Of a DNA stretch of 40,772 nucleotides, positions 7,627 to 21,558 are shown piece by piece. The notes under the pieces are model-generated. The model was not told where the DNA came from. It ran no database searches and saw nothing but the letters and a program-made list of their open reading frames with translations. How positions within the stretch are numbered: the first letter of the stretch is position 1; each line of letters opens with the position of its first letter. The position numbers were made by a program, and so were the translations under genes. Origin of the DNA: an uncultured Dehalococcoidia bacterium (GTDB lineage: Bacteria > Chloroflexota > Dehalococcoidia > SZUA-161 > SpSt-899); contig CAZJSO010000002.1 of the NCBI GenBank assembly GCA_964548795.1, positions 1-40,772 on the forward strand, in the 5' to 3' direction.

Positions 7627-8526
7627 TTAAGCTGATGGCACGGTGGAAATAGGAGTCAGTGGATGATAGAAGCCGTTGCGCAGTATCAAATAGCGGAAGG
7701 TAACATCTCCCAGAAGTTCGAAGAAGATGGAGAGCCACAGAAGGGCTATTGGAATGGCCTCCAGGCCAGAGAGATACCCGCTGACCACCACGCCAAGGGG
7801 GAAGCAGACTCCTAATAATGCTACCACACCCCAGAATAATGGCCACCACCTTCCCGTTACTATCTCCCTAACCGAGAGCTCCCCTCCCTTGGAGCTATAC
7901 CTGACGCTAGTCAAATAGGCTGCTACGACAAGAATAAAGGCTCCAAGTAACATCCTAATCAGCCCCTCTAGTTCAGGTCCTGTCTGGCTGAATATGCCTC
8001 CAGCCAACATCACACCTAAAGCTAACTCAGCACCTCCCCAAAAGCCCGCCACCACATAAAGCACTGGCAGTAAGGCTGTATTCCATAGGGGTATCCCATT
8101 AACGTAGCTCATGGCAAAGCCACCGTATATGGTAACCAAGAAAGCTACAATCTCGAGTATTACTAGCAGTGCCAGGGGGGAGCTGGCCCAATAGGCCAGG
8201 GCCAGGTGTATGGCCCCTAAGACGATGAAGAGGGCAATGAATATCATGCCCCGAGAGATCCAGGAGGTTTGCGGCCTAAGAAAAGCCCGGTAGAATCTCA
8301 GAGGTTGTCCCAAATACAAAAGGTGGAACCCGCCACCCAGAACGATGCAGATAAGCCAGCCGATAAACATGCCCCACAGGCTATTGAACAAGGCAGCCAC
8401 AAACAGCATTCCAGCACCTAGCTCGATGAAAAAGAAAGCTAACCATAGGAGAACCCCCCGACCCTCTATCCATTCTCTTTGTGGGGTGTACCGGGTCATA
8501 AATTCAAATGGCCTTGTCTGAATCAT
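7627..8526 (-). CDS. NrfD/PsrC-type integral membrane subunit of a molybdopterin oxidoreductase
   Basis: 299 aa, hydrophobic throughout with about 8 predicted helices. It sits immediately downstream of the FeS and catalytic subunits. Confidence 0.7.
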   Translation of the reverse strand: MIQTRPFEFMTRYTPQREWIEGRGVLLWLAFFFIELGAGMLFVAALFNSLWGMFIGWLICIVLGGGFHLLYLGQPLRFYRAFLRPQTSWISRGMIFIALFIVLGAIHLALAYWASSPLALLVILEIVAFLVTIYGGFAMSYVNGIPLWNTALLPVLYVVAGFWGGAELALGVMLAGGIFSQTGPELEGLIRMLLGAFILVVAAYLTSVRYSSKGGELSVREIVTGRWWPLFWGVVALLGVCFPLGVVVSGYLSGLEAIPIALLWLSIFFELLGDVTFRYLILRNGFYHPLTPISTVPSA

Positions 8527-8546
8527 GACTTCAGACCTCCTTCCAA

Positions 8547-9191
8547 TTACTCTAAGTAGTATATTGAGGGATCAGTCCCGTACTCAGGGTGCAGTTGTCT
8601 GCCCTTGCGCCCTCTTATTAGCATGGAGACTTCGCTTCCAGGGTCTTCCAGATCGCCAAAGTACATGGCTTTAGTAGGGCAGTTAATTACACAGGCAGGA
8701 GTGGCTTCCCGGTCCACACCTGGCTTTAGTCCTTTAGCCATCCCAGCGTCAATCCTCTCCATACAGAAGTTACACTTCTCCACCGTGCCTGGCGTGTGAG
8801 GGTACAGTTGCTTACCAATCTCTTCGAAGGGCGTTAATCCTTGATCAGGGAAGTATTCATGCTCATCCGAGTAGAATGTTCGAGAATTGTAGGGACAGGC
8901 CATCATGCAATACCGGCAGCCCATGCATTTGTCTGGATCAACCCAAACGATGCCATCCTCCCGCCTCTGAGTGGCCCCGGTGGGGCAGACGTCCACGCAT
9001 TTGGCCTCCTTGCAATGGTTGCATCGTACCGGCAGAATATGCTTGCTCACCAGGGGATACTTTCCTGTCTCCGAAATCAAGACCCTGCACCAGAATACCC
9101 CCGGAGGGAGGAAATGCTCTGCTTTGCAGGTCAAAACGCAGTTCCAGCAGCCGATGCATTTCTTTAGATCTATGACCATTCCCCATCTCAT
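8547..9191 (-). CDS. four-cluster [4Fe-4S] electron-transfer subunit (PsrB/DmsB/NrfC type)
   Basis: Four Cys groups: CIGCWNCVLTC, CNHCKEAKCVDVCP, CMGCRYCMMACP and CNFC...CVINCP. Start moved to the ATG at 9191 (MRWGMVIDL), which is preceded by AGGAGGTG overlapping the stop of the catalytic gene. The track start at 9266 would overlap that gene by 64 nt. Confidence 0.85.
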   Translation of the reverse strand: MRWGMVIDLKKCIGCWNCVLTCKAEHFLPPGVFWCRVLISETGKYPLVSKHILPVRCNHCKEAKCVDVCPTGATQRREDGIVWVDPDKCMGCRYCMMACPYNSRTFYSDEHEYFPDQGLTPFEEIGKQLYPHTPGTVEKCNFCMERIDAGMAKGLKPGVDREATPACVINCPTKAMYFGDLEDPGSEVSMLIRGRKGRQLHPEYGTDPSIYYLE

Positions 9192-9202
9192 AAAGGCACC
9201 TC

Positions 9203-11974
9203 CTACTTTTTCTCCACGGCCGATATTATTGGCTCTATCTCCGGCCGCCAGGAAGGTGTTTTCCAAGCTCCTTCATACTCAACTCGACGGTTAGTCTTGT
9301 AGACCTTAACCCTAGCTGCTGTCTCCTGGCTGAAGGATATGGGGCAAACATGCTTAAAATCTGACTCTAACAGAATATTGAAGTTAGTCCCTTTACCAAA
9401 GGCGACAGGTTGGCCTTTGGCCCAACTTCCGGAACAGGCCGCGATGGACACCGTTTTGGGATGCATGCCTTGCATCGTCTTTAAATAACCGGTTACCTTC
9501 CTTCCGTAAGGTGTCTCCAGACAAATGAGATCCCCATCTTTCAGGCCCTTTTCCGCTGCTGTATCGGCATTCATAGTAATGGTGTAGGTATAAGGCGAAA
9601 GCCGACTGGCCTCATCTAACCAGGGGGCTTCCATAGTGCCCGAGCCAGCATGAAGTATATCACGGTAGGAGAAGCAGTAGAGGTCGTATTCTGAGTCTCC
9701 TTCCTTGGCCACCTGCGGTTTAAAGTAACTCAGCAAGGGCGTCCATTGTTCCCACTCAAGTTCCAGCCCGATCTTCCTGGCGTTTTCCATCACGTGAGGC
9801 CGGAGTTCGGCTATATGTTCCTGATAGATGGGAACTCTGGCTTTAACAAATGGCCTCCAGTAGGCCTCCCTTACTCGCTTGGGCCAGTGTATGTAGCCAT
9901 GCTCCTTGAAATAATCCAGCCCGTGGTCTGGGCCGAAGTAATACTTCAGCACTCGATCGATTAGCTCAGGGTAGGTGATTTTTTCCTCTGGTTTTATTAG
10001 CTCCACGACCTTGCTCTTGTCTATCCCGAAAGCGGCTCTCATGCCTTTAATATCACCGCCGATGAGAGCCTCACCGCCGAAGCTCGAGAAGTAAACGTTA
10101 TAATAGTGGTTGAGCTGCTCCCTCATCCCCAGCCGATCCATCAATTCCCAAAGGATCTCGATAACCTGGCGGCGTTCATATTGTGGCTTGACCACCGGCT
10201 GGCGAAGGGGGAAATACCAACCCTCAAGCCCAATGGGCCAGGTGAAGAAGGGGGCATGCTGTTCGAAGAGCCCCCAGCTCTCCATGGAGTGGGTATCTGG
10301 AAGCACTATATCAGCAAAGCCTTCGTTGAATTCATTGAAGGTAGTATTAATGGAAACCGTAAAAGGAACCTTCTTAAAGAATTCGGTTACTACCTCTCGG
10401 TTCTGAGTTGTGCGGGCAAAGTTGGCCCCATAAATGAGGGCCACTTTTATTTCATAGGGACGTCCGGCTTTGTTCCAGTAATCCTCAAAATCGCTGGTTG
10501 CCGGGTGAGGGGAGAAGGAAGCTGTGGGGACGAGATCCTTAAAGCACACATCGGCCGGCACTTTAGACTCCTCCACGGGCCAGGCCTTATGCTCCATCCA
10601 GGTCCCTGTAGTAAGCATGCCATCGCGGGGGTCAGGGTAGGGCATAATGATAAATCGGCCTGTCCCGGGGTAGCCCAAACTCACTGGAGGCCAGCCAATA
10701 GTGCCTCCGGGAACATCCATGGCCCCTACTATGGCATTAAGCAGGCATACGGACATGTAAGCGTGCCCCCCATTGGTATGCCCCTGACCACCGCGGAACA
10801 TTATGGCTGATACCGGCCTGTAGGGTAATTTCTCTACATCCCCAGCCTCTCCACGCACTTCAATAGTGCTACCTACCCTGGCTTCCTGAGCAAATTCGGT
10901 GGCGAGGCGATGGATCGTCTTGGCTGGCACGGTACTCATTTCCGAGGCGAACTCCGGGGTATACTGCTTAACGTGTTCCTTTATGAGTTGAAAGGCAGGC
11001 TGGCATTTGATGCCTTGCACTTCATAATTCCCGAAGAGCGCTACATCGGTAGAGTCAATGATGCTAGGGTCATCCCAGACCTTGGCTTTGCCTTCCTTTT
11101 CATCCCACAGCATCGGCTTACCAGTCTCCTTATCCCTTACGTAGGTCAAATCAGAGCCAACTAAGTAGGAACCATTCGTCCTCGTCTTGAGAAAGTCGGC
11201 GTCGTATATCCCAAGCTCGTTCAAAATCACGTTGACCATGGCCAAGGCTATGGCCCCGTCCGTTCCAGGCAGCAGAGGAATCCACTCAGTAGCCTTACCA
11301 CCACCAAAGTTGCACATGGGGTCGAAGACTACAATTTTAGCCCCCCTGGCTCGGGCCTCGGCTGCCAGCCGAGCATTGAAGCCGAAGGAATGGCCGGAGC
11401 CTGCACCTTTGTTAGAGCCGAAGTAAATAACGTAATTGGTATATTTCCAATCGGGGACAATTGACCAGGAAGCATGGAAAAGGCCAGCCCCTAGGTGGGC
11501 TGCATTTCCACAGTGGAGTCCAGCTCCGCCAATATACCAGTTGGGGGTGCCGAAAAGGGATCCGAAAACGGCGAAACCTAAGGCCAAGTTGGAGGCCGTA
11601 CCTGGAGTGGGGGTGCCTCCGTGCAGAAGCTGGCGAGGGTCGTCCTTTATCTCCTTTAGCCTTTGGGTTATCTCGTCGAGGGCCTCATCCCAGGATATTC
11701 GCTTCCATTGGGGGTCCTCGAAAAGTCCCTTCTTCGGATTAGTCCGCCTCATGGGGTAGTTCACCCGATTAGGGTCGTAGAACTGCTGAATGAGAGCCGG
11801 AGCCTTGGCACATACGCCACCTCGAGGGCCAAAGTCTGTGTCAGGGTCTCCTTCTACCTTTACAATCACGCCGTTCACCCGATGAACCCTGATGGTGCAG
11901 GTGGCATAGCACCCTCCGCAAGTGGTCCTAACCCAGGTATCGTCCCATATTTCTGGTTGTTTAGCCTCTGGCAT
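9203..11974 (-). CDS. molybdopterin (bis-PGD) oxidoreductase catalytic subunit, DMSO-reductase superfamily, no signal peptide
   Basis: About 923 aa with an N-terminal CGGCYATC...C [4Fe-4S] motif and a candidate Mo-ligand region GLHCGNAAH. Start taken as the ATG at 11974, because the track GTG at 11983 is part of the SD GAAGGAGGTG. Only about 20 residues precede the first Cys, with no RR motif. Confidence 0.85.
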   Translation of the reverse strand: MPEAKQPEIWDDTWVRTTCGGCYATCTIRVHRVNGVIVKVEGDPDTDFGPRGGVCAKAPALIQQFYDPNRVNYPMRRTNPKKGLFEDPQWKRISWDEALDEITQRLKEIKDDPRQLLHGGTPTPGTASNLALGFAVFGSLFGTPNWYIGGAGLHCGNAAHLGAGLFHASWSIVPDWKYTNYVIYFGSNKGAGSGHSFGFNARLAAEARARGAKIVVFDPMCNFGGGKATEWIPLLPGTDGAIALAMVNVILNELGIYDADFLKTRTNGSYLVGSDLTYVRDKETGKPMLWDEKEGKAKVWDDPSIIDSTDVALFGNYEVQGIKCQPAFQLIKEHVKQYTPEFASEMSTVPAKTIHRLATEFAQEARVGSTIEVRGEAGDVEKLPYRPVSAIMFRGGQGHTNGGHAYMSVCLLNAIVGAMDVPGGTIGWPPVSLGYPGTGRFIIMPYPDPRDGMLTTGTWMEHKAWPVEESKVPADVCFKDLVPTASFSPHPATSDFEDYWNKAGRPYEIKVALIYGANFARTTQNREVVTEFFKKVPFTVSINTTFNEFNEGFADIVLPDTHSMESWGLFEQHAPFFTWPIGLEGWYFPLRQPVVKPQYERRQVIEILWELMDRLGMREQLNHYYNVYFSSFGGEALIGGDIKGMRAAFGIDKSKVVELIKPEEKITYPELIDRVLKYYFGPDHGLDYFKEHGYIHWPKRVREAYWRPFVKARVPIYQEHIAELRPHVMENARKIGLELEWEQWTPLLSYFKPQVAKEGDSEYDLYCFSYRDILHAGSGTMEAPWLDEASRLSPYTYTITMNADTAAEKGLKDGDLICLETPYGRKVTGYLKTMQGMHPKTVSIAACSGSWAKGQPVAFGKGTNFNILLESDFKHVCPISFSQETAARVKVYKTNRRVEYEGAWKTPSWRPEIEPIISAVEKK

Positions 11975-12108
11975 GACAAACACCTCCTTCGGGTAGTAAA
12001 AGGAAAGTTTGCTTGGGGAAGCTGGTGGAATTTAGAATTTGAGGAAGATTGTTTAACTCTAGTGAAAAATTGAAGTTATAATCACTCTCCACGATTCCGC
12101 CACTAGAA

Positions 12109-12943: not shown

Positions 12944-14146
12944 TCAGGGGTAGCTTACCGTAAGCACTTGGTCATCATAGGTAGTCAGCCTTTCAACGCC
13001 GGCCTTGGTAACCAGGTAGTCATCCTCTACCCCGACAGCTCCTACCCCGGGGAAGACCAGTTTGGGCTCGAAGGCAAAAACCATGCCCTCTTGGAATTCC
13101 TCATGAAAGTTGGGAGCCACCAGGGGATATTCATCGATCTCAAGACCGATTCCATGTCCCACAAAGGAGACCTGGTGTCCCTTGTAGCCCATAAAGTAGT
13201 CCTGGTATCCCCGTTGATGGGCCAGTTTTATCACTTCCCTGTAGAGTGCGGAGCAGCACCGGCCGGGCCTGACCCACCCTTCCATAAAGTCCTTGACCTC
13301 TTTGGCGAAGGAGTAAGCCTGTTGTAATTCCGGAGACAATTCTCCAACTACAAAAGTGCGAGTCATGTCCGTTACATATCCGTTAATTCCTATGCCGAAA
13401 TCAATGATGATGGGCTCATTTCTAGCGATGCGGTTAAAGCTGGCTCCCTGAGCAATAGCGGGTGTAGTTCCCTGGCCACCTAAAGGTGCCTCTAGGAAAG
13501 AGGGGATGACAGCGGTCTTACCGCAGAAGACGTGAGCGTAAAACATCTCCTGATTATAGCCGCGCATCCGCAGGCGACCTTGGTGCCCCAGCCGCCTGGC
13601 CAGATTCCCCAGGAGACCATCAACATCGAGCTCAGTCATTCCTGGCCGAATGCTTCTCTGAGCTTCCCGCATAACCTCATTTAAAATCTCGCAGGCCTTC
13701 CTGATTTGGGCGATTTCGTAGTCTGATTTAAGCATCCGTGCTTTTCTGATAAGCTCAGAGATGTCCACAAATTCCGCCTGTGGGAAATCCTGACGCAGGG
13801 CAAGGTAGGATCTGACTGGGAGGATGTCCATCTCCAGGCCTATCCGCCCTCGCACGGAGTAGTTGAATTTCGCCAAGGCTCGGCCCAGTTGGTGGTTATT
13901 TTTCAAGGGAAGTATCTGGTTGAGCGGGGATTCTCTAGAAGCTCGGCCGAAGTCCCTTTGCACTGCCAAGACAGGCTCACCTTGAGCGGGGATGAAGAGA
14001 AGGGAACGTTGGATAGTGCCAGCAAGGTAGAAGAGATCAGCATTCTGGGAGATCAAGGCACCTTTGATATTAGCCTTTTGCAGCAGAGTCTGAAACCGGG
14101 CAATTCGGGAGGCAATCTCTTCTGGAGGTGTGTGCTCATATTCCAT
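12944..14146 (-). CDS. M24-family Xaa-Pro aminopeptidase/dipeptidase
   Basis: 400 aa with a creatinase-like N-domain followed by a pita-bread domain carrying the metal ligand pattern (DFGIGINGYVTDMTRTF, HGIGLEIDE, FEPK, VEDD). Confidence 0.85.
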   Translation of the reverse strand: MEYEHTPPEEIASRIARFQTLLQKANIKGALISQNADLFYLAGTIQRSLLFIPAQGEPVLAVQRDFGRASRESPLNQILPLKNNHQLGRALAKFNYSVRGRIGLEMDILPVRSYLALRQDFPQAEFVDISELIRKARMLKSDYEIAQIRKACEILNEVMREAQRSIRPGMTELDVDGLLGNLARRLGHQGRLRMRGYNQEMFYAHVFCGKTAVIPSFLEAPLGGQGTTPAIAQGASFNRIARNEPIIIDFGIGINGYVTDMTRTFVVGELSPELQQAYSFAKEVKDFMEGWVRPGRCCSALYREVIKLAHQRGYQDYFMGYKGHQVSFVGHGIGLEIDEYPLVAPNFHEEFQEGMVFAFEPKLVFPGVGAVGVEDDYLVTKAGVERLTTYDDQVLTVSYP

Positions 14147-14181
14147 GCTTAGCTCACTTACGGTAGGCTGATGGCTGAAAT

Positions 14182-14994
14182 TTAGATTTGGTAAGGCTCA
14201 TGCAGTGAATCTTCCATTTCCCGAACCAGAGTGAGGCCCTCTTCCTCAGTGAGTTCTATGCCCTTCTCAACCCTCTCTAGGTATTCATCTATGTGAGGTC
14301 TTTGCCGCCTTATTTCAGCAATTCTTCTCTCCTGCTGTTCCGCCCTCTGCTGGCAAGCTGAAAGATTTAATTGCAGCTCCAGCACCTGACATACACTTTC
14401 CAGCATAATTTCCACCATGCGGCGGTCCTCAATATTGGCCAGGTAAAAGGGAACCTCCCCCCAGAAGCTGACTGCCGAAAGCCTGCGCCTCTTAGCCAAC
14501 CAGAGCAAGAAGCCACTCATTGAGGTGGAGCCGTGGTAGCTGATAAAATCGAGAGGGTATGGAGATAGCTCTTGCCTTAGTTCTGGCCGGTTGAACACCG
14601 TCAGCACCCGACGTTTTCCCAAGTGCCCTGTCCTAGAGACCAGACCCCCAATGGTGTAGATCCTTTTGACCTTTAGCTCTTCGGCGAGGTCAAGCAGCAG
14701 GCTCAAGAATTCATACTGCGCCTGTGATGGTTGCATACTACGAAAAAGGATAAGGTTGGCTTGCTCTGAGTAATATAATGTGGAGGTAGGAAATTCAATC
14801 ACGTCAGCTTCTATAGAAACTGCGTTAAGTGAGAAGTAACCCAAGGGATTAAAGCGACAGAATTCCTCTGCCCCGACTTCTTGGCTCACATAATCAATAA
14901 GCTCCCCTCCCAGTGCTCCGGCATCTGGTTCCCAGCCCACCAATAAGCATGGCCGACGGATTTTAGGCCGTTTAAGAAATCTGATTTTCTCCAT
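14182..14994 (-). CDS. PAC2-family (proteasome assembly chaperone-like) protein, paralogue 2
   Basis: 270 aa. The N-terminal PCLLVGWEPDAGALGGELIDYV and the central RIYTIGGL and GEVPFY segments parallel the upstream paralogue. Length falls in the PAC2 family range. Assigned by eye. Confidence 0.6.
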   Translation of the reverse strand: MEKIRFLKRPKIRRPCLLVGWEPDAGALGGELIDYVSQEVGAEEFCRFNPLGYFSLNAVSIEADVIEFPTSTLYYSEQANLILFRSMQPSQAQYEFLSLLLDLAEELKVKRIYTIGGLVSRTGHLGKRRVLTVFNRPELRQELSPYPLDFISYHGSTSMSGFLLWLAKRRRLSAVSFWGEVPFYLANIEDRRMVEIMLESVCQVLELQLNLSACQQRAEQQERRIAEIRRQRPHIDEYLERVEKGIELTEEEGLTLVREMEDSLHEPYQI

Positions 14995-14999
14995 AGTTT

Positions 15000-15890
15000 C
15001 TAACTCCGCTTCTCCTTTCCGCCTTTAAAGAATTCTTCGATTTCCTTCATGATCCGTTCTTTATCCTTTTCAGTTATTGGCCCAACTTGTGGCACAATGG
15101 ACTTCAGCTTATCAAGCTCTCTTCTCACCTCTGGAGGGAAGCTCTCATACAGTTTCTCAATTTCTCGATCGGCTTGCTCGGCATAAAATCCAATCTCCCC
15201 CATGTCAATGTGAAGGTCAAGTATATGGGTGAGGACACTAAGAATAGACCGAGAGGCCTTAGGATACTGTAGAGGAAAGTGAGCGATATAGACCGGAATT
15301 TCCCCTAGAAAGCAAGCCCCCTCCATATTTCTTTCTTTGGCCACCCCTATCAAAACGCCGTTAAGGCCGGTAATGTTCCCGCTACCCCGCCGTTCCTCCA
15401 GTTCGCTGAGTAGCACCACGTTATGCCTCTTCAGCTCCGACAAGAGGTAGCGGCTATTAGGCACAGCCCAGACTCTTGGTTCAAATGTATGGTGAATTGA
15501 GGCCACTGCGGCCGCAGCGGTGTAAACTCGGCTTACGCCGAATTGCTGAGCTACATCGAGGATGAGGTTGGTCAAGGCATAGATTTTACTCTCCTCATGT
15601 GGCTGAGCCCCTCCGAGGAAGAATATCAGGTCAGGTTCACCTCGGTAGTAGAAGAAGATATTCTCCGGGAATTCCATGTCCCGCATTAGGCCATCTTCAA
15701 TCAGCACTTTATGGGGAAAGAAAAAGGGCTCTGGATTTATCTCAGCAAATCTTCTGGCCCTAAGCTTAGTCCTGAGATAACTCACCGTAGAAATGCCAAT
15801 GTTGGCTATGCCTGGCCAGCCAGCGATGAGGATGGGACTTTTAAGCTGTGGCCGACTGTAGAACCTGATTTCTGATTTAGGATTTTTCAC
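15000..15890 (-). CDS. PAC2-family (proteasome assembly chaperone-like) protein, paralogue 1
   Basis: 296 aa with SPILIAGWPGIANIGISTVSYL, RVYTAAA, ITGLNGVL and GEIPVY, resembling archaeal PbaA/PbaB-type PAC2 proteins. The GTG start shares 1 nt with the VWA gene stop, and a strong SD GGGGGAG is present. Confidence 0.65.
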   Translation of the reverse strand: MKNPKSEIRFYSRPQLKSPILIAGWPGIANIGISTVSYLRTKLRARRFAEINPEPFFFPHKVLIEDGLMRDMEFPENIFFYYRGEPDLIFFLGGAQPHEESKIYALTNLILDVAQQFGVSRVYTAAAAVASIHHTFEPRVWAVPNSRYLLSELKRHNVVLLSELEERRGSGNITGLNGVLIGVAKERNMEGACFLGEIPVYIAHFPLQYPKASRSILSVLTHILDLHIDMGEIGFYAEQADREIEKLYESFPPEVRRELDKLKSIVPQVGPITEKDKERIMKEIEEFFKGGKEKRS

Positions 15891-17146
15891 TAAACTCCCC
15901 CTTTCCTCAACTTGAGGTAGTCCTCGACCACCACCTTGCCCAGCGTAATCGGGGAGGTAAAGAACACTCGCCCCAGATTTCTTCTGGCCAAACTTGAGGC
16001 CAGGCGTCTTAACCTGGGGGTTTCGTCCAGCATGATTATATTGAGTCCTATAGCCTGCTGACGGTAGAGCCAGGCTTCTTCCAGCAGGCCTAAAGCGGCC
16101 TGTTCAAAACCAACATAGGCACCGTCCTCCATGTTAGGCTCAGCATCTGTGATCAAGTAAGCCTGCCGAGCTCCCTTCTGCCCCGCTACTGCTTTGCGAA
16201 AGGCTCGCAAGGCAGAGCGAATATCAGTGGCTCCACCGGTCATTACCTCATTGATGATCGCCCAAGGGGATATACGCCTGACCTTTTCGGAAAAGCTGAA
16301 GATTAACACTTCATCCTTTGGCTCCCGGCGGACGAGTTCAGAAAGTGCCAGAGCTGTTTCTAGGGCCGCCTCAAGCTTGTAACCATTCCTCATGGAACCA
16401 CTCTCATCAATAATTATCCCGGAGCAGATATTTATTTGGTGAATTTCCTCATGTATCTCGAAATCCCCCAACTCAAACCTTAACCCGCCGCATCTCCGTA
16501 GGGCATTCAAGGCAGTTTTCTCCACGTCCACCAAGGAATAGTCGTCGCCAAATTCATAGCTCCTGGTGTAAAGGGAAAGCTCTGCTCCAAAGCCAGGCTT
16601 CTCCATAAGATGAGAGCCCACATCTTTACCAACTAAGTGACGAAGAATGCGCTCTAAAATGCCTGAAGCCAACTTCCGGGCACCCCTGGAAGTTATCTTA
16701 ATCTTTCTATCCTCAATCTCGATATAACCTTCCTGCCGCAATTCCTGCAGAGCTTTTTCAACATCACCTTCGCCGATGCCAGATGATTTCCATCTCAGGT
16801 TCCTTATTCTTTCCTGTAGCTCTCTTCTGATTTCGTCTTCAAGGAGGCGCTGGGCTAATTCCTCTACCGATCCACCCTTAAGCAAGCTATCCATGACCTC
16901 ATAGGAGAGCCTCTCCTCGTACTCCTGCAATAAGTTTTCATATTCTTGAAGTCTGTTTTTTTCTTCACGGTCTCTCTCCTCCTTGAATCTCCTCAGCCTC
17001 TGTCCAAGTGAGCTTTCCGGATGTTGATAGGACAGGCGGATAACATCCCTTAAAGGGCGGCCCCCAAGCTGAGCGAGCTCTTGGAGCAGTTCGCTCTCTG
17101 TCTTGAGCTGACATCGGTCACAATATTCCCTCGCTGGGTAGGTCAA
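15890..17146 (-). CDS. VWA-domain protein (intact MIDAS) with coiled-coil N-terminal half
   Basis: 418 aa. The C-terminal VWA domain has DESGSM (DxSxS) plus downstream T and D positions. The N-terminal half is rich in E/R/L heptads. The TTG start overlaps the AAA+ gene stop (TTGA) and is preceded by SD GGGGG. Confidence 0.8.
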   Translation of the reverse strand: MTYPAREYCDRCQLKTESELLQELAQLGGRPLRDVIRLSYQHPESSLGQRLRRFKEERDREEKNRLQEYENLLQEYEERLSYEVMDSLLKGGSVEELAQRLLEDEIRRELQERIRNLRWKSSGIGEGDVEKALQELRQEGYIEIEDRKIKITSRGARKLASGILERILRHLVGKDVGSHLMEKPGFGAELSLYTRSYEFGDDYSLVDVEKTALNALRRCGGLRFELGDFEIHEEIHQINICSGIIIDESGSMRNGYKLEAALETALALSELVRREPKDEVLIFSFSEKVRRISPWAIINEVMTGGATDIRSALRAFRKAVAGQKGARQAYLITDAEPNMEDGAYVGFEQAALGLLEEAWLYRQQAIGLNIIMLDETPRLRRLASSLARRNLGRVFFTSPITLGKVVVEDYLKLRKGGV

Positions 17147-18666
17147 ATTCTGCCCCCGAACTTGTCCGGTAAAAATATCCCGACCATTTTCGCCCGGTCC
17201 AAAGCCCTTTGGTGCAGGGCAAGGTTAGCTAGAATTTCCAGAGCAGAAAAGTTGGCTTCCTCAATGACTTCTGAGTTCCGCTCCAGACTTTCTAATTCTG
17301 ATGACCTGCATCTCATTTTATGGATAACCTGCGACAGCTCTTCACGCTTGGAGATAAGTTCTTCTGGCACCTTGCCAGTGGAAAGGTTAACCTCGGAGAG
17401 CAGGGAACTAAGCTCCTGGGCCAACTTCTGGTGATTATACTCGCCCAAGAATTGCCCCTCATCCTTAAGATCCTCGAACACATTCCACATAAAATCAGCC
17501 GTTAGTTCGTCGCCTAGCAGGAAAGTTTTTTGGGGGTTGTCCAAGTCAATGAGGTCAGCTCGAAGGCCTACCCTTCCTCGGAGTGCCAACTTGAGGCCAT
17601 GATAAGCCTGTCGCAAGTTAGCTACCTGCCGATTCTCCAGCTCCACGCTGGCGTAGGTATGGTCCAGAGCCCTGTTGCTAGCCCTTATGCTGGGTTTCTT
17701 CTCCACGTAGGGGCAGATACGACTATATCTTACCGATTTATTGAGCAGATCGACAATCCACCAAGGAACAATCGCCTTACGCTCAATTTCCTCAAGCTCA
17801 GGGTAAGAGGGCTCTTCTTCTAAATTCACCTCAGCATAAGGCTTCACCCGGAAAGTCTCCTTGAGCATTATTCGGCGCTCAACTTCCTCCTCAGGCAAAT
17901 CCATGTAGACCGGCTCAAGGCGGTCGAGGAGGGGACGAGGTATTTCGTTCACATGAGCGAACCCCCGGGGATTGCCCGTGGCAATGAGCACTAGGTCGAG
18001 AGGATGCTCCCAGTTATACTCCTCTAAGATAGCCTTCTTCTCCTCCAGAATTGGGTGGAAGAGGACCTGTACCTTGGTGCGGATGGCAGGAAGCTCATCC
18101 ACAAAGAGTATTCCTCTATTGGCCCGGAACACTCCGGTACCGGTAAAAACTCGAGGATCGGAGGGGCTTTTGCCTTTAGCAATTGCCTGGATATCCTTGA
18201 GGCCAAGTAACTTGGCCTCGTTAGTGTACTCATTTCCCTGAATACGGGAGAATCGCCTTGGGCCGGGAATGAAGTCGATTCCGAATTCTTTCACCGGGTC
18301 TTTAGCTTGACGGCAACGGGGACAAAGCAGTTCTCTAGGCCACTTGGGATCATCATGGTAGGGGCATCCCCGGATGAATGGAACACGCGGAAGCAACCTG
18401 GTAAGTGACCTGGCCAGCCTTGTTTTCCCAGTGCCCTCCTCCGAAATAAGATAGGGATGTGCTCCGGAGAGAAGAGCCCGTACGACATCAGCCTTAGTTT
18501 CCTGCCGGCCATCGATCTCTGGCAAGAGTTCCTCTCCCCGCCTTATTTTTCTCAAAAGAACCCCTCTGATCTGATGGGCTACAGGCAGGGGCTGGTAACC
18601 ATCCAGGTCAAAGCTAGACTTCTCTTTGAAAGTGGGGTAAGATTTTCTTAAGAGTTTTCCCAGCAT
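17143..18666 (-). CDS. AAA+ ATPase of the ChlI/BchI (Mg-chelatase-like) type with zinc-knuckle insert
   Basis: 507 aa with Walker A EEGTGKT, Walker B ILFVDEL, sensor ATGNP and PLLDRL. It has a CPYH...CPRC insert at the position where BchI/ChlI carry their Cys-rich insert, and a C-terminal extension of about 200 aa of unknown type. Confidence 0.8.
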   Translation of the reverse strand: MLGKLLRKSYPTFKEKSSFDLDGYQPLPVAHQIRGVLLRKIRRGEELLPEIDGRQETKADVVRALLSGAHPYLISEEGTGKTRLARSLTRLLPRVPFIRGCPYHDDPKWPRELLCPRCRQAKDPVKEFGIDFIPGPRRFSRIQGNEYTNEAKLLGLKDIQAIAKGKSPSDPRVFTGTGVFRANRGILFVDELPAIRTKVQVLFHPILEEKKAILEEYNWEHPLDLVLIATGNPRGFAHVNEIPRPLLDRLEPVYMDLPEEEVERRIMLKETFRVKPYAEVNLEEEPSYPELEEIERKAIVPWWIVDLLNKSVRYSRICPYVEKKPSIRASNRALDHTYASVELENRQVANLRQAYHGLKLALRGRVGLRADLIDLDNPQKTFLLGDELTADFMWNVFEDLKDEGQFLGEYNHQKLAQELSSLLSEVNLSTGKVPEELISKREELSQVIHKMRCRSSELESLERNSEVIEEANFSALEILANLALHQRALDRAKMVGIFLPDKFGGRI

Positions 18667-18684
18667 ATTTCACCAGGGGAGGCG

Positions 18685-19377
18685 ATGTCTGGACTTCCAA
18701 CCATAGTCGAGATTTTGAGGTATCTTCGCAGTAATGCCACACCCCACACCTACGAAGATATTATCAGCCAGACCTCGGGGAGTCAAGGCCGGGTTGAGCA
18801 GGCACTCACGAAACTGGTAACCAGTGGAATGGTGAGGGCTAAGGGGAAGCTCTACCAGTACATCCCTACTCCCGAAGCTGAAGAACTATGTCAGAAACTT
18901 TTCGATCTATATGAGCGAGTAGTGCAAAAATCTCGGCTGGAATTACTCCTCCGGGGAATTTTGTCCCAAAGCGCCCAGCGTTATTTCTTCAAGATGGACA
19001 CGCTCAGGGAGATGCTGGAGAGGGAGGGATTTGCCTCTCAGGAGGTAAGCCAATTGCTGAAAGAGGAAATCAGGAAAGGACACATTCGACACTTAAAGTT
19101 GGTCTTTGTGACCAAGCTCCCTTTCTCAGCTCCTATTTATGTGCCTTTGGCGTATATCTCACACTTCGGGCCAGTTCGTTCTCAGGAGTACGAGGCGCTA
19201 AAGGAATATTCACAGATCAAAGGGCTAGATTTCATCGAGGAGGATTATCTCCAAGCTGATTACCCTCCAGAGCTAGCTCAGCCAGGACAGGAATATCTCA
19301 AGAAAGAGGCAGGACGGATTCTGGAGAAATTGAGGGAAGAAGCCTTACTCCAGTGGTATAGCCTTAGAGGCTATTAA
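18685..19377 (+). CDS. hypothetical protein with N-terminal winged-helix DNA-binding-like domain
   Basis: 230 aa. The first ~65 aa (TIVEILRYLRSN...HTYEDIISQTSGSQGRVEQALTKLVTSGMVRAKGKLY) look like a MarR/ArsR-type wHTH; the rest is unassigned. It is divergent from the AAA+ gene with only 18 bp between the start codons. Confidence 0.5.
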   Translation: MSGLPTIVEILRYLRSNATPHTYEDIISQTSGSQGRVEQALTKLVTSGMVRAKGKLYQYIPTPEAEELCQKLFDLYERVVQKSRLELLLRGILSQSAQRYFFKMDTLREMLEREGFASQEVSQLLKEEIRKGHIRHLKLVFVTKLPFSAPIYVPLAYISHFGPVRSQEYEALKEYSQIKGLDFIEEDYLQADYPPELAQPGQEYLKKEAGRILEKLREEALLQWYSLRGY

Positions 19378-19758: not shown

Positions 19759-21558
19759 TCATCCTGGGCCAAGATGCTCTTTGAAGAGCTGCGCTCCGCT
19801 TTGGAAGAGTTCTCTAAATTTCTCTGCCTGTTGACGGAGGTACTTTAAGGGTCCCAGCCCGGTTTCACCCAGATAGCGAAGTCGGTGATAGCGAGATTTC
19901 GCCAGGCGGCTGGGAGAAAAGACCTGAATTTGGGCTAACTCTTGGAGGAGGAGATTGCGCAATAGCCTACTTGCTTCAGCATGATTGGCATGTGCCCCTC
20001 CTTCTGGCTCCGGAACTATAAGGTCAATTATTCCGAACTCCTTGCACTCAGCGGCTGTCAGCCTCAGCTCAGGAGCAAGCTCCTGAGCCTTAGTTGCATC
20101 CCGATAGAAGATCGATGCAGCACGCTCTGGCGAGATCACTGTAAGATAGGCGTTCTCCAGCATCAAGACTCTGTCGGCCAGACTCAGGGCCAGGGCGCCT
20201 TCGCTCCCTCCTTGACCAATGATCACCGAAATAACAGGGGTGGGCAAATCGGAGAGGAAAGCCATAGTGGAAGCAATGGCCTGGCCAATCCCTTTTTCCT
20301 CGGCCTCTGGCCCTGGGTAAGCCCCTGGAGTATCGATAAAGTTTATAAGCGGCAGGTTGAACTTAGCGGCTAGCTTCATAGCTCGTTGTGCCTTGCGAAA
20401 ACCTTCAGGCCTTACTCTCCCTTCATTCCGATCCCGTTGTTGTCCAATTACTACCACCGCCTCTCCACCGATCTCAGCCAAGCCGCAGATTAACGCTGGG
20501 TCATCACCGGAGACGCGGTCCCCGTGCAGTTCAACAAAGTTAAAGGCAATCCGTGACATGTAATCCAGGAAGGTAGGACGTAGCTTGTGTCGGGCGAGCT
20601 GGACTGTCTGCCAAGGTTGCTCTTGGGCATGAAGAGGGGCGAAGTAGGGCTTGGCCTTCTTCCGCATCCCTAGGCGATAACGTGGAGTAAGAAGATCAAG
20701 AATGATGGAGAGCAGATGTCTCTGCTCGGTTCGCTCGGCCACCTGGTCAATTAGTCCATGTTCTAAATGTGCTTCGGCAGTATGACCTTTCTCTGGAAGC
20801 ACCCCACCCGCCTCTTCCTTCATCACCCTCAGAGGAGCAAAGCCCAGCAAAGCTTGGGGCTCAGCAATGATAATATCTCCCAGGCTGGCTAGGCTGACGT
20901 AAACTTCTCCTGTGGTGGGACTGCTCAGAATACAGATGAGGGATAATTTGTCCTCCTGGAATCTCCTAGCGGCTGCAGTCACTTTACCCATTTGGATCAA
21001 GGAAAGCACCCCTTCTTCTACCCGGCAGCCACTGGAGGAAATCACTACGACCAATGGCAGTCGGCGTCTTGAGGCAAACTCAAAGGCACGAGCGAGCTTT
21101 TCTCCTGCCACCACTCCCAGGCTACCGCCCATGAAGCCGAAATCGAGCACTGCCAGGACAACTGAGTTTCCCCCGATGGAACAACTGCCAGTTAAGACTG
21201 CCTCGGCTAGTCCACTCTTTCTCTGTGCTTCCAAGAGTCGCTCTTGATAGGGCAGGTTACTTTCTAACTGTAAGAATTCCGGAGTAGCCAACCTAGGATC
21301 CAGTTCTTGAAAGCTCTCCGGGTCGACCAGTAAGTTTACTCGCTTCCACGCTGGGAGATAGTGGTGGAAGTGGCAAACATCACAAACTCGGTAGATCCGA
21401 TATAGTTCAGCCTGGGATAAATCGGCCCCGCAATGTAGGCAGCGGGCTTCCTCTAGAGGTTCCTCAGGAGGGGGCTGCGAGGTGAATCTTTCCAGCCTCC
21501 GCTGCTTTAACCTCTGCCGCTCCAGGTAATAAGCCAGTAGCGAAATCAATTCCCTCAT
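19759..21558 (-). CDS. accDA: acetyl-CoA carboxylase carboxyltransferase, fused beta (AccD) and alpha (AccA) subunits
   Basis: 599 aa. The N-terminus has the AccD zinc ribbon CLHCGADL...CDVCHFHH and a CT-beta domain. The C-terminal half has AccA-type motifs (FIDTPGAYPG, GQGGSEGALA). The ATG overlaps the ftsK stop (ATGA). Confidence 0.85.
   Translation of the reverse strand: MRELISLLAYYLERQRLKQRRLERFTSQPPPEEPLEEARCLHCGADLSQAELYRIYRVCDVCHFHHYLPAWKRVNLLVDPESFQELDPRLATPEFLQLESNLPYQERLLEAQRKSGLAEAVLTGSCSIGGNSVVLAVLDFGFMGGSLGVVAGEKLARAFEFASRRRLPLVVVISSSGCRVEEGVLSLIQMGKVTAAARRFQEDKLSLICILSSPTTGEVYVSLASLGDIIIAEPQALLGFAPLRVMKEEAGGVLPEKGHTAEAHLEHGLIDQVAERTEQRHLLSIILDLLTPRYRLGMRKKAKPYFAPLHAQEQPWQTVQLARHKLRPTFLDYMSRIAFNFVELHGDRVSGDDPALICGLAEIGGEAVVVIGQQRDRNEGRVRPEGFRKAQRAMKLAAKFNLPLINFIDTPGAYPGPEAEEKGIGQAIASTMAFLSDLPTPVISVIIGQGGSEGALALSLADRVLMLENAYLTVISPERAASIFYRDATKAQELAPELRLTAAECKEFGIIDLIVPEPEGGAHANHAEASRLLRNLLLQELAQIQVFSPSRLAKSRYHRLRYLGETGLGPLKYLRQQAEKFRELFQSGAQLFKEHLGPG

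Follow-up and report, generated by a model that had tools for sequence, protein, structure and literature searches.

The window analysed here, a 40,772-nt stretch of contig CAZJSO010000002.1 from an uncultured Dehalococcoidia bacterium, carries a compact run of five minus-strand genes. They encode a ChlI/BchI-type AAA+ ATPase, a stand-alone VWA protein with a metal-ion-dependent adhesion site (MIDAS), two PAC2-family proteins (PAC2a and PAC2b) and an M24 peptidase, and a tandem winged-helix (WH) gene diverges from them. The original prediction regarded the five genes as one module joining PAC2 proteins, an AAA+/VWA motor and an exopeptidase, an arrangement that proved not to be conserved in related genomes. 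Two-way neighbourhood surveys split the five-gene run into three units with separate histories, and the cluster is most probably (about 0.7) a lineage-specific juxtaposition of three independently inherited units in one Dehalococcoidia lineage. The first unit would be the AAA+ and VWA genes, often accompanied by the divergent tandem-WH gene, as a ChlI/BchI-type AAA+/MIDAS machine. The second would be the PAC2a-PAC2b heteropair, an independent cassette, and the third a housekeeping prolidase, whose place at the end of the string is peculiar to this genome. Co-expression of the three units, if it occurs, would be a feature of the lineage and does not define a system; start/stop overlaps and tight packing alone do not define a functional system.

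Gene layout and conservation of the cluster

The features are as follows, with genes taken from an open reading frame (ORF) scan, the spacer from reading of the sequence and motifs from alignment.

12944-14146, minus strand: M24B peptidase, 400 aa
14182-14994, minus strand: PAC2b, 270 aa
15000-15890, minus strand: PAC2a, 296 aa
15890-17146, minus strand: stand-alone VWA/MIDAS protein, 418 aa
16394-16408, minus strand: MIDAS DxSxS motif (DESGS), D247-S251 of the VWA protein
17143-18666, minus strand: ChlI/BchI-type AAA+ ATPase, 507 aa
18313-18366, minus strand: Zn knuckle C101-x2-H104...C115-x2-C118 of the AAA+ protein
18421-18435, minus strand: Walker A P-loop GTGKT, G78-T82 of the AAA+ protein
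18667-18684: divergent intergenic spacer of 18 nt between the AAA+ and WH start codons
18685-19377, plus strand: tandem-WH partner gene, 230 aa

The predicted packing of the five genes was exact. The TTG start of the VWA gene overlaps the TGA stop of the AAA+ gene (TTGA, 17143-17146), the VWA stop and the GTG start of PAC2a share one nucleotide at 15890 (TAGTG), and gaps of 5 and 35 nt separate PAC2a from PAC2b and PAC2b from the M24 gene. From this spacing, the minus-strand genes at 12944-18666 are probably transcribed together. With 18 nt between the AAA+ and WH starts, the promoters must sit inside the adjoining coding sequences. A promoter and terminator scan of the cluster returned matches at or below the shuffled-sequence expectation, including a promoter-like minus-strand match at 18786-18758 that is not above chance; the scan is uninformative, being compatible with co-transcription and no proof of it.

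Conservation was judged from a comparison set of 132 loci (L001-L132), comprising 45 AAA+ loci and 87 PAC2a loci, with four contigs (L133-L136) added later. The AAA+ loci came from a genome scan and contig look-ups, and 80 of the PAC2a loci from a metagenome scan with a PAC2a alignment. Neighbourhoods of 10 kb on either side of each match were covered, and six-frame ORFs at the AAA+ loci were searched with the window proteins.

Seen from the AAA+ gene, the most stable association is with VWA, which adjoins AAA+ in 35 of 40 informative loci, mostly overlapping the AAA+ stop. All-against-all clustering found no further conserved neighbour of the AAA+/VWA pair beyond the WH gene. A PAC2 gene is present in six of the AAA+ loci only. 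The predicted link between PAC2 and AAA+/VWA stood in part: it holds, within 10 kb, in two Dehalococcoidia subclades that are sisters in the AAA+ tree (5/5 informative loci; the PAC2-linked loci are the window, L005, L006, L007, L009 and L011) and fails elsewhere (1/18), the single positive locus outside them being an archaeon whose PAC2 gene is 10.8 kb away. Independent recruitments of PAC2 were rejected, as the PAC2-linked loci all fall within the two sister subclades. The M24 gene is found in none of the 23 informative AAA+-side loci.

Seen from the other side, PAC2b adjoins PAC2a in 81 of 87 loci, in Dehalococcoidia-like genomes and in spore-forming Firmicutes. Among loci with at least 1.5 kb of upstream sequence, AAA+/VWA adjoins the PAC2 pair in all four whose PAC2a is at least 64% identical to that of the window and in none of the 48 others. 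The pair has no universal neighbour. In a 1.75-Mb genome the tandem lies between radical-SAM and acetyl-CoA synthetase genes, and in Firmicutes contigs it accompanies GerA/GerAC spore-germination genes, in both cases with no AAA+/VWA within 10 kb. The M24 peptidase, predicted to belong to the module, is missing from all 39 PAC2-side loci with downstream sequence and was found in no locus of L001-L132; the closest relative whose downstream sequence is available, L005, has an Era GTPase gene after PAC2b. Each unit is strongly conserved alone, so that neither depends on the other.

Several observations weigh against a mere juxtaposition. The VWA/PAC2a junction is tight (a 0-1-nt overlap or abutment) in the window, L005, L006, L049-51 and L052, spanning PAC2a identities down to 64%, and the PAC2 pair stays within about 5 kb of VWA despite local rearrangements. 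Moreover, L009 carries a very divergent lone PAC2b-like gene (about 26% identity) 48 nt after VWA and followed by FdhD; this lone PAC2 is a decayed PAC2b-like gene. The tight junctions, the L009 arrangement and the retention within about 5 kb may be signs that selection favours co-expression here. In addition, co-occurrence of PAC2 with AAA+/VWA was judged within 10 kb on either side only, the clade test uses a neighbour-joining tree with short internal branches, and the operon structure is read from spacing.

The same observations favour a functional coupling, in which the PAC2a/b heteromer was recruited in this Dehalococcoidia lineage as a client, cofactor, adaptor or assembly platform of the AAA+/VWA motor. 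Such a clade-restricted, proteasome-independent, ATP-driven module, in which participation of M24 may be optional, appears unlikely. On its side are the translationally coupled VWA/PAC2a junction kept in several species-level lineages, the PAC2-type gene that L009 keeps right after VWA despite its divergence, and PAC2 genes within 5.3 kb at all five informative loci of the two sister subclades. Both units also plausibly act on protein complexes, as is known for ChlI/ChlD, MoxR/VWA and PbaA/B. However, the adjacency has a single phylogenetic origin, and the partner is missing at 48/48 distant PAC2 pairs and at 17/18 other AAA+/VWA loci. Unrelated and opposite-strand genes also interrupt the operon: in L007, L011 and L133 VWA is parted from the PAC2 pair by an ABC-2 transporter and by genes on the opposite strand (HAD hydrolase, riboflavin kinase and FAD-binding oxidases), while L052 has the order VWA-PAC2a-PAC2b-ABC-2. 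As a five-gene module, the coupling also has to contend with an M24 gene that is never conserved. No paper linking PAC2 with AAA+/VWA was found in the literature. If true, such a coupling would mean that a bacterium employs the PAC2 fold in an ATP-driven way independent of the proteasome, and would offer a first functional handle on both bacterial PAC2 proteins and the inter-domain AAA+/VWA family.

The AAA+/VWA pair and its winged-helix partner

All domain and motif calls of the original prediction proved correct when compared with Pfam, PDB sequence matches and family alignments. Under the juxtaposition reading, the first unit is the AAA+/VWA pair, which belongs to no characterised system. 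The AAA+ protein matches AAA_5 (4.9e-11, above the cut-off of that family) and Mg_chelatase (5.3e-8) in Pfam, whereas AAA_3, the MoxR family, reaches only E 0.055 and 13.8 bits against a cut-off of 27. Its best match among PDB sequences is ChlI (8osf, 9e-11). An AlphaFold2 (AF2) model (pLDDT 75.6, pTM 0.82) gave BchI (1g8p) and ChlI (8osf/8osg) as top Foldseek matches, followed by MCM, RavA and MoxR (2r44), which places the protein, as modelled, in the pre-sensor-II-insert clade. An N-terminal helical extension precedes the ChlI/BchI-like core, which holds a Zn knuckle and is followed by a helical C-terminal tail of about 130 aa.

Both the predicted ChlI/BchI motif order and the CxxH...CxxC knuckle are upheld by an alignment of 43 AAA+ sequences. 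In Walker A, G78, G80, K81 and T82 are invariant (43/43) and T79 nearly so (42/43). The Walker B DE, sensor-1 N232 and the PLLDRL arginine-finger region are likewise invariant or nearly so. The knuckle, which occupies a loop without Cys in ChlI, keeps C101, C115 and C118 in 43/43 and H104 in 26/43 homologues.

The VWA protein matches VWA_2 (6.8e-11). Its MIDAS, predicted to be intact, is invariant or nearly so across 34 sequences (D247, S249, S251 and T307 in 34/34, D334 in 32/34). An N-terminal CxxC is followed by a variable coiled coil, a WH-like segment (GYIEIEDxKIKITSxGARKLA), a conserved middle domain and the C-terminal VWA domain. The middle domain is PF27098 (Rv0959_3rd) by precomputed Pfam annotation in homologues. 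Against PDB sequences, neither the protein nor its family profile gave a match for the N-terminal half, the only match being a weak one of the MIDAS region to 5a8j. An orthologue of Rv0958 has been co-purified with RNA polymerase in M. smegmatis, without detectable association with DNA. For the window AAA+, as a possible orthologue of Rv0958, this is a lead only, and no functional study of an Rv0958/Rv0959-type pair was found in the literature.

The AAA+ family is widely distributed, with 484 homologues in bacteria and archaea that are 48-81% identical. At the surveyed loci, identities are 55-81% in Dehalococcoidia, 52-62% in Deltaproteobacteria/Desulfobacterales and 48-60% in archaea. The archaeal carriers comprise tar-biofilm Halobacteriota, Ca. 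Alkanophaga, Methanobacteriota and a contig labelled 'Aenigmatarchaeota'. The AAA+/MIDAS pair is strongly constrained. Alkane- or methane-cycling archaea have it in common with Dehalococcoidia and Deltaproteobacteria, and the unit would have moved among these two bacterial groups and several archaea. ChlI-ChlD and MoxR-VWA are precedents for client remodelling by a ring ATPase and a VWA protein, and by analogy with them the AAA+ protein would form a ring on which the VWA protein docks. The VWA MIDAS would hold a client protein by an acidic side chain, and ATP hydrolysis would then remodel or mature that client, which would not be encoded at a fixed position.

The WH gene had been treated as peripheral. 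It is instead the gene most often conserved alongside the AAA+/VWA pair, co-located with it in 21 of 42 non-redundant loci and in three orientations (divergent upstream, co-directional upstream and downstream). The protein consists of WH1 (residues 6-59), a long helix (63-96), WH2 (102-143) and a C-terminal region, which the AF2 model renders as alpha/beta-plus-helix and which carries the conserved motif EEDYLxGxYPxExAxPAxEYL. The model is of moderate confidence (pLDDT 69), being built from the 6 homologues found by a word-based search. No Pfam match for the WH protein lies above cut-off, and its profile and model match generic WH proteins only in the PDB (Sso10a, MarR, Pol III C34 and SelB, all at E>2e-3). 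The protein is either a local transcriptional regulator or an adaptor. PADLOC, which covers known anti-phage systems including the vWA-MoxR ternary system, gave no match for the AAA+, VWA, PAC2 and M24 proteins, and weak WH/Csa3-type matches (E about 1e-3) for the WH protein.

A Dehalococcoidales subgroup (L001, L003/L004, L016, L019, L135 and L136) is without the WH partner, and hmmsearch found no cut-down version of it there. These loci have a conserved gene block of their own, in the order ~94-aa, ~480-aa and ~65-aa genes, AAA+, VWA, a ~70-98-aa gene and a class-V aminotransferase (cysteine-desulfurase-like). The ~94-, ~480- and ~65-aa genes have no Pfam match. The block may provide the AAA+/VWA motor with an alternative set of accessories.

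As for the client, the pair, with or without the WH protein, might serve as a maturase or activase for W/Mo-pterin oxidoreductases, e.g. aldehyde:ferredoxin oxidoreductase (AOR); CoxD/CoxE play an analogous role for Mo-Cu CO dehydrogenase. AOR, together with a 4Fe-4S subunit, is the sole neighbour that recurs across phyla, with 11 AOR genes in 7 of 43 AAA+/VWA loci (1.93 per 100 kb) against one in the 81 PAC2-only control loci (0.14 per 100 kb). It adjoins the WH gene in L007, L010, L011 and L133. Furthermore, enzymes with a molybdenum-bis(pyranopterin guanine dinucleotide) (Mo-bisPGD) cofactor lie near the pair in L014, L015, L021 and L136 and at 9203-11983 of the window, and the gene after the L009 PAC2 gene is FdhD. 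This role is nevertheless a doubtful one. About 75% of the loci are without such a gene within 10 kb, the link is not seen at the archaeal loci, and only about four of the AOR contexts count as independent. The genomes of the control loci are other ones, and these anaerobes carry AOR in multiple copies. A prospective check on the four new contigs was mixed, L136 being positive, L134 and L135 negative and L133 non-independent.

Taken together, W/Mo-pterin enzymes (AOR with its 4Fe-4S subunit, and Mo-bisPGD oxidoreductases) are about 14-fold denser near AAA+/VWA than at PAC2-only loci, which may mark a client or be an artefact of genome composition. The contexts are L001, L007, L010, L011, L014, L034, L037, L133, L136 and 7627-11983 of the window.

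Far less probable is a tetrapyrrole chelatase of class I (Mg, Co or Ni), of which AAA+/VWA would be the I/D part, with the H/CobN subunit encoded at another place in the genome. By sequence and by structure ChlI/BchI are indeed the best matches, the MIDAS is intact as in ChlD/CobT, and Dehalococcoidia depend on corrinoids. However, all curated equivalog scores are far below their cut-offs: 38.1 bits against 467 for TIGR02030 (BchI-ChlI), 34.8 against 500 for TIGR02031 (BchD-ChlD) and 42 against 779 for TIGR02442. The VWA protein is without the N-terminal AAA+-like domain of ChlD/BchD. The 40.8-kb window holds no CobN/ChlH-like ORF, and all ORFs of at least 750 aa at the 45 AAA+ loci encode unrelated proteins. 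To our knowledge, neither a WH partner nor a Zn knuckle is a chelatase feature.

Some variants of the pair were also encountered. Two diverged AAA+ copies occur in three genomes (L035/L036, L038/L041 and L043/L044); in L043 the AAA+ gene adjoins a different VWA protein, a VWA-PKD protein of 896 aa, while its sole partner in L041 is a truncated WH gene of 147 aa. Two Ca. Alkanophaga loci, L039 (9187-13114) and L040, have AAA+ without a VWA partner. There AAA+ overlaps with the stop codon of a gene for a PDCD5-like dsDNA-binding protein. That gene comes after ribosomal protein S19e, and downstream there is a NOG1-type GTPase. This ribosome-biogenesis-flavoured context, seen in a single genus, is reminiscent of midasin, which combines AAA_5 with a MIDAS. 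In the contig labelled Ca. Aenigmatarchaeota (JASEGN010000035.1, recorded as both L002 and L033), AAA+ groups in the tree with the deltaproteobacterial L037 and is accompanied by a bacterial-type WH partner. Its neighbours include a stand-alone Lon_C protease domain, DUF2103 and DnaJ, and the contig could represent mis-binning or a recent inter-domain transfer. Recurrent short ORF clusters near AAA+/VWA were discarded, being shadow frames inside the AAA+ and VWA genes.

Homologues place the window in a Chloroflexota/Dehalococcoidia MAG. The other window ORFs of at least 150 aa are ordinary housekeeping and energy genes of an anaerobe. They include PFOR/OFOR, a Mo-bisPGD oxidoreductase with FeS and NrfD subunits, PlsY, FtsK, UDG, ETF, beta-oxidation enzymes and a fused acetyl-CoA carboxylase (ACC) carboxyltransferase. 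The last (19759-21558) is one fused beta-alpha polypeptide of 599 aa (Carboxyl_trans and ACCA) and is syntenic with WH/AAA+/VWA in the closest relatives L005, L006 and L049-51. Scans of the window for tRNA and Rfam families gave no matches.

The PAC2 pair and the M24 peptidase

The second unit, PAC2a/PAC2b, is an ancient self-contained PbaB-like heteropair, widespread in anaerobic Chloroflexota and Firmicutes. The prediction that these two genes are diverged PAC2 paralogues is borne out by Pfam PF09754, which matches PAC2a at 2.9e-35 (122.5 bits) and PAC2b at 2.1e-30 (106.6 bits) with a gathering cut-off of 25.8, and by PDB sequence searches with matches to PbaB, PbaA, Rv2125 and 3mnf. PAC2a is closest to PbaB (3vr0; 7.5e-23 by sequence and 3.8e-34 by profile), while PAC2b matches 3mnf at 2e-11 and Rv2125 at 4e-9. 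The two paralogues are 28% identical (E 1e-30).

Homologues of PAC2a are numerous, 728 being detectable. Conservation within the pair is asymmetric, with 83 columns conserved at 95% or more in PAC2a (82 sequences) vs 31 in PAC2b. The conserved PAC2a columns include WPGIxNxG, AAVAxxHH and GxITGLNG, and its clade-specific invariant residues include HH133-134, which are missing from PbaB. To judge from this pattern, an arrangement of one active or binding subunit and one scaffold subunit would fit.

A C-terminal HbYX motif docks into the 20S alpha-ring pockets, as known for Pba1/2 and archaeal PbaA/B. No HbYX terminus, and no penultimate Tyr, occurs in the C-termini listed for 82 PAC2a and 64 PAC2b sequences; those of the window end in FFKGGKEKRS (PAC2a) and EPYQI (PAC2b). 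Given the lack of HbYX tails, the pair most likely acts as a hetero-oligomeric scaffold or chaperone whose target is not the 20S proteasome. Where HbYX would be, both proteins have an acidic/aromatic C-terminal motif in common, E-E/D-F-F/L-K/R-K.

A conventional 20S-proteasome assembly chaperone, with the proteasome encoded elsewhere in the genome, has very little probability: the clear PAC2 family membership with PbaB closest, and the 40.8-kb extent of the genome inspected, speak for it, but no HbYX is seen in either paralogue across about 80 orthologues of each, scores stay far below the NCBIfam cut-offs (102.6 and 66.1 bits vs 200 for TIGR00162, 41.3 and 26.4 vs 199 for TIGR00161), the pair is common in Firmicutes spore-formers and small Dehalococcoidia genomes, neither the window nor the annotated parts of related loci that were examined hold a proteasome gene, and according to Fuchs et al. 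2017 (PMC5666114) Chloroflexi with PAC variants are devoid of a proteasome. The predicted lack of proteasome, HslV, CobN and ChlH genes nearby was confirmed across the whole window and at the 45 AAA+ loci.

The third unit is the M24 peptidase, whose predicted family was upheld by Pfam (Creatinase_N 1e-22 and Peptidase_M24 5e-46) and by matches to the prolidases 3q6d and 1wy2 (about 5e-30). All five D/D/H/E/E metal ligands align to 3q6d (IIDFG, TDMTR, GHGIG, FEPK and VEDD). The PepQ equivalog scores 122.7 bits with a cut-off of 630, and the assignment is at the family level only, as an M24B enzyme of the Xaa-Pro dipeptidase/aminopeptidase-P type. By its sequence it is an ordinary housekeeping prolidase-type enzyme, predicted to be catalytically intact. 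An insertion of about 40 residues relative to solved prolidases lies between two aligned blocks, around residues 188-224.

Comparison with known systems

The M24 protein resembles PepQ (M24B) in its Creatinase_N plus M24 architecture and its complete set of metal ligands, and differs from it in falling below the equivalog cut-off and in the insertion of about 40 residues.

The PAC2 pair belongs to the same fold family as PbaA/PbaB and PAC2/Pba1-Pba2 and likewise consists of two paralogues encoded side by side; PAC2a shares the PGIGxxG, GxIxGxxGxLLG and llGE motifs with PbaB. Unlike PbaA/PbaB, the window pair has no C-terminal HbYX, carries HH133-134 in PAC2a and is asymmetrically conserved. 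Among bacterial PAC2 proteins without an assigned function, it resembles the actinobacterial Rv2125, Rv2714 and 3mnf, and the two groups share a PxYxxxxP(N/Y)PKA(T/S)-type motif. However, Actinobacteria possess a proteasome, and the window proteins form a distinct, obligately paired a/b clade in Chloroflexota and Firmicutes. The host phylum of the window pair has also been reported to be without a 20S proteasome (PMC5666114). PAC2a/PAC2b without HbYX is widespread in anaerobes of phyla not known for proteasomes, and bears on the role of bacterial PAC2 proteins and on the evolution of proteasome accessory factors.

With ChlI/BchI-ChlD/BchD, and also CobS/CobT, the AAA+/VWA pair shares the AAA+ motif order, a BchI-like fold, a partner with a C-terminal VWA domain and intact MIDAS and, as in ChlI-ChlD, translationally coupled genes. 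Unlike ChlI, the window AAA+ has a Cys/His Zn knuckle and an extra helical tail of about 130 aa, and scores about 10-fold below the equivalog cut-offs. Where ChlD has its AAA+-like N-domain, the VWA protein carries a CxxC motif, followed by a coiled coil, a WH segment and a middle domain of the Rv0959 type. Class I chelatases differ further in that the window pair has no nearby H/CobN subunit and has an extra tandem-WH partner.

With the MoxR-type pairs (CoxD/CoxE, NorQ/NorD, CbbQ/CbbO and RavA/ViaA), the window pair shares the two-gene logic of AAA+ plus MIDAS-VWA and the pre-sensor-II-insert clade, and a client-remodelling mechanism is likely. However, the window AAA+ is nearer to ChlI than to MoxR. 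Moreover, known MoxR-type pairs sit beside their client (CO dehydrogenase, NOR or Rubisco), whereas the window pair has no fixed neighbour or conserved client gene. On present evidence, AAA+/VWA with its WH partner is an uncharacterised family and the PAC2 pair a known puzzle made slightly sharper, neither of them being a new kind of system.

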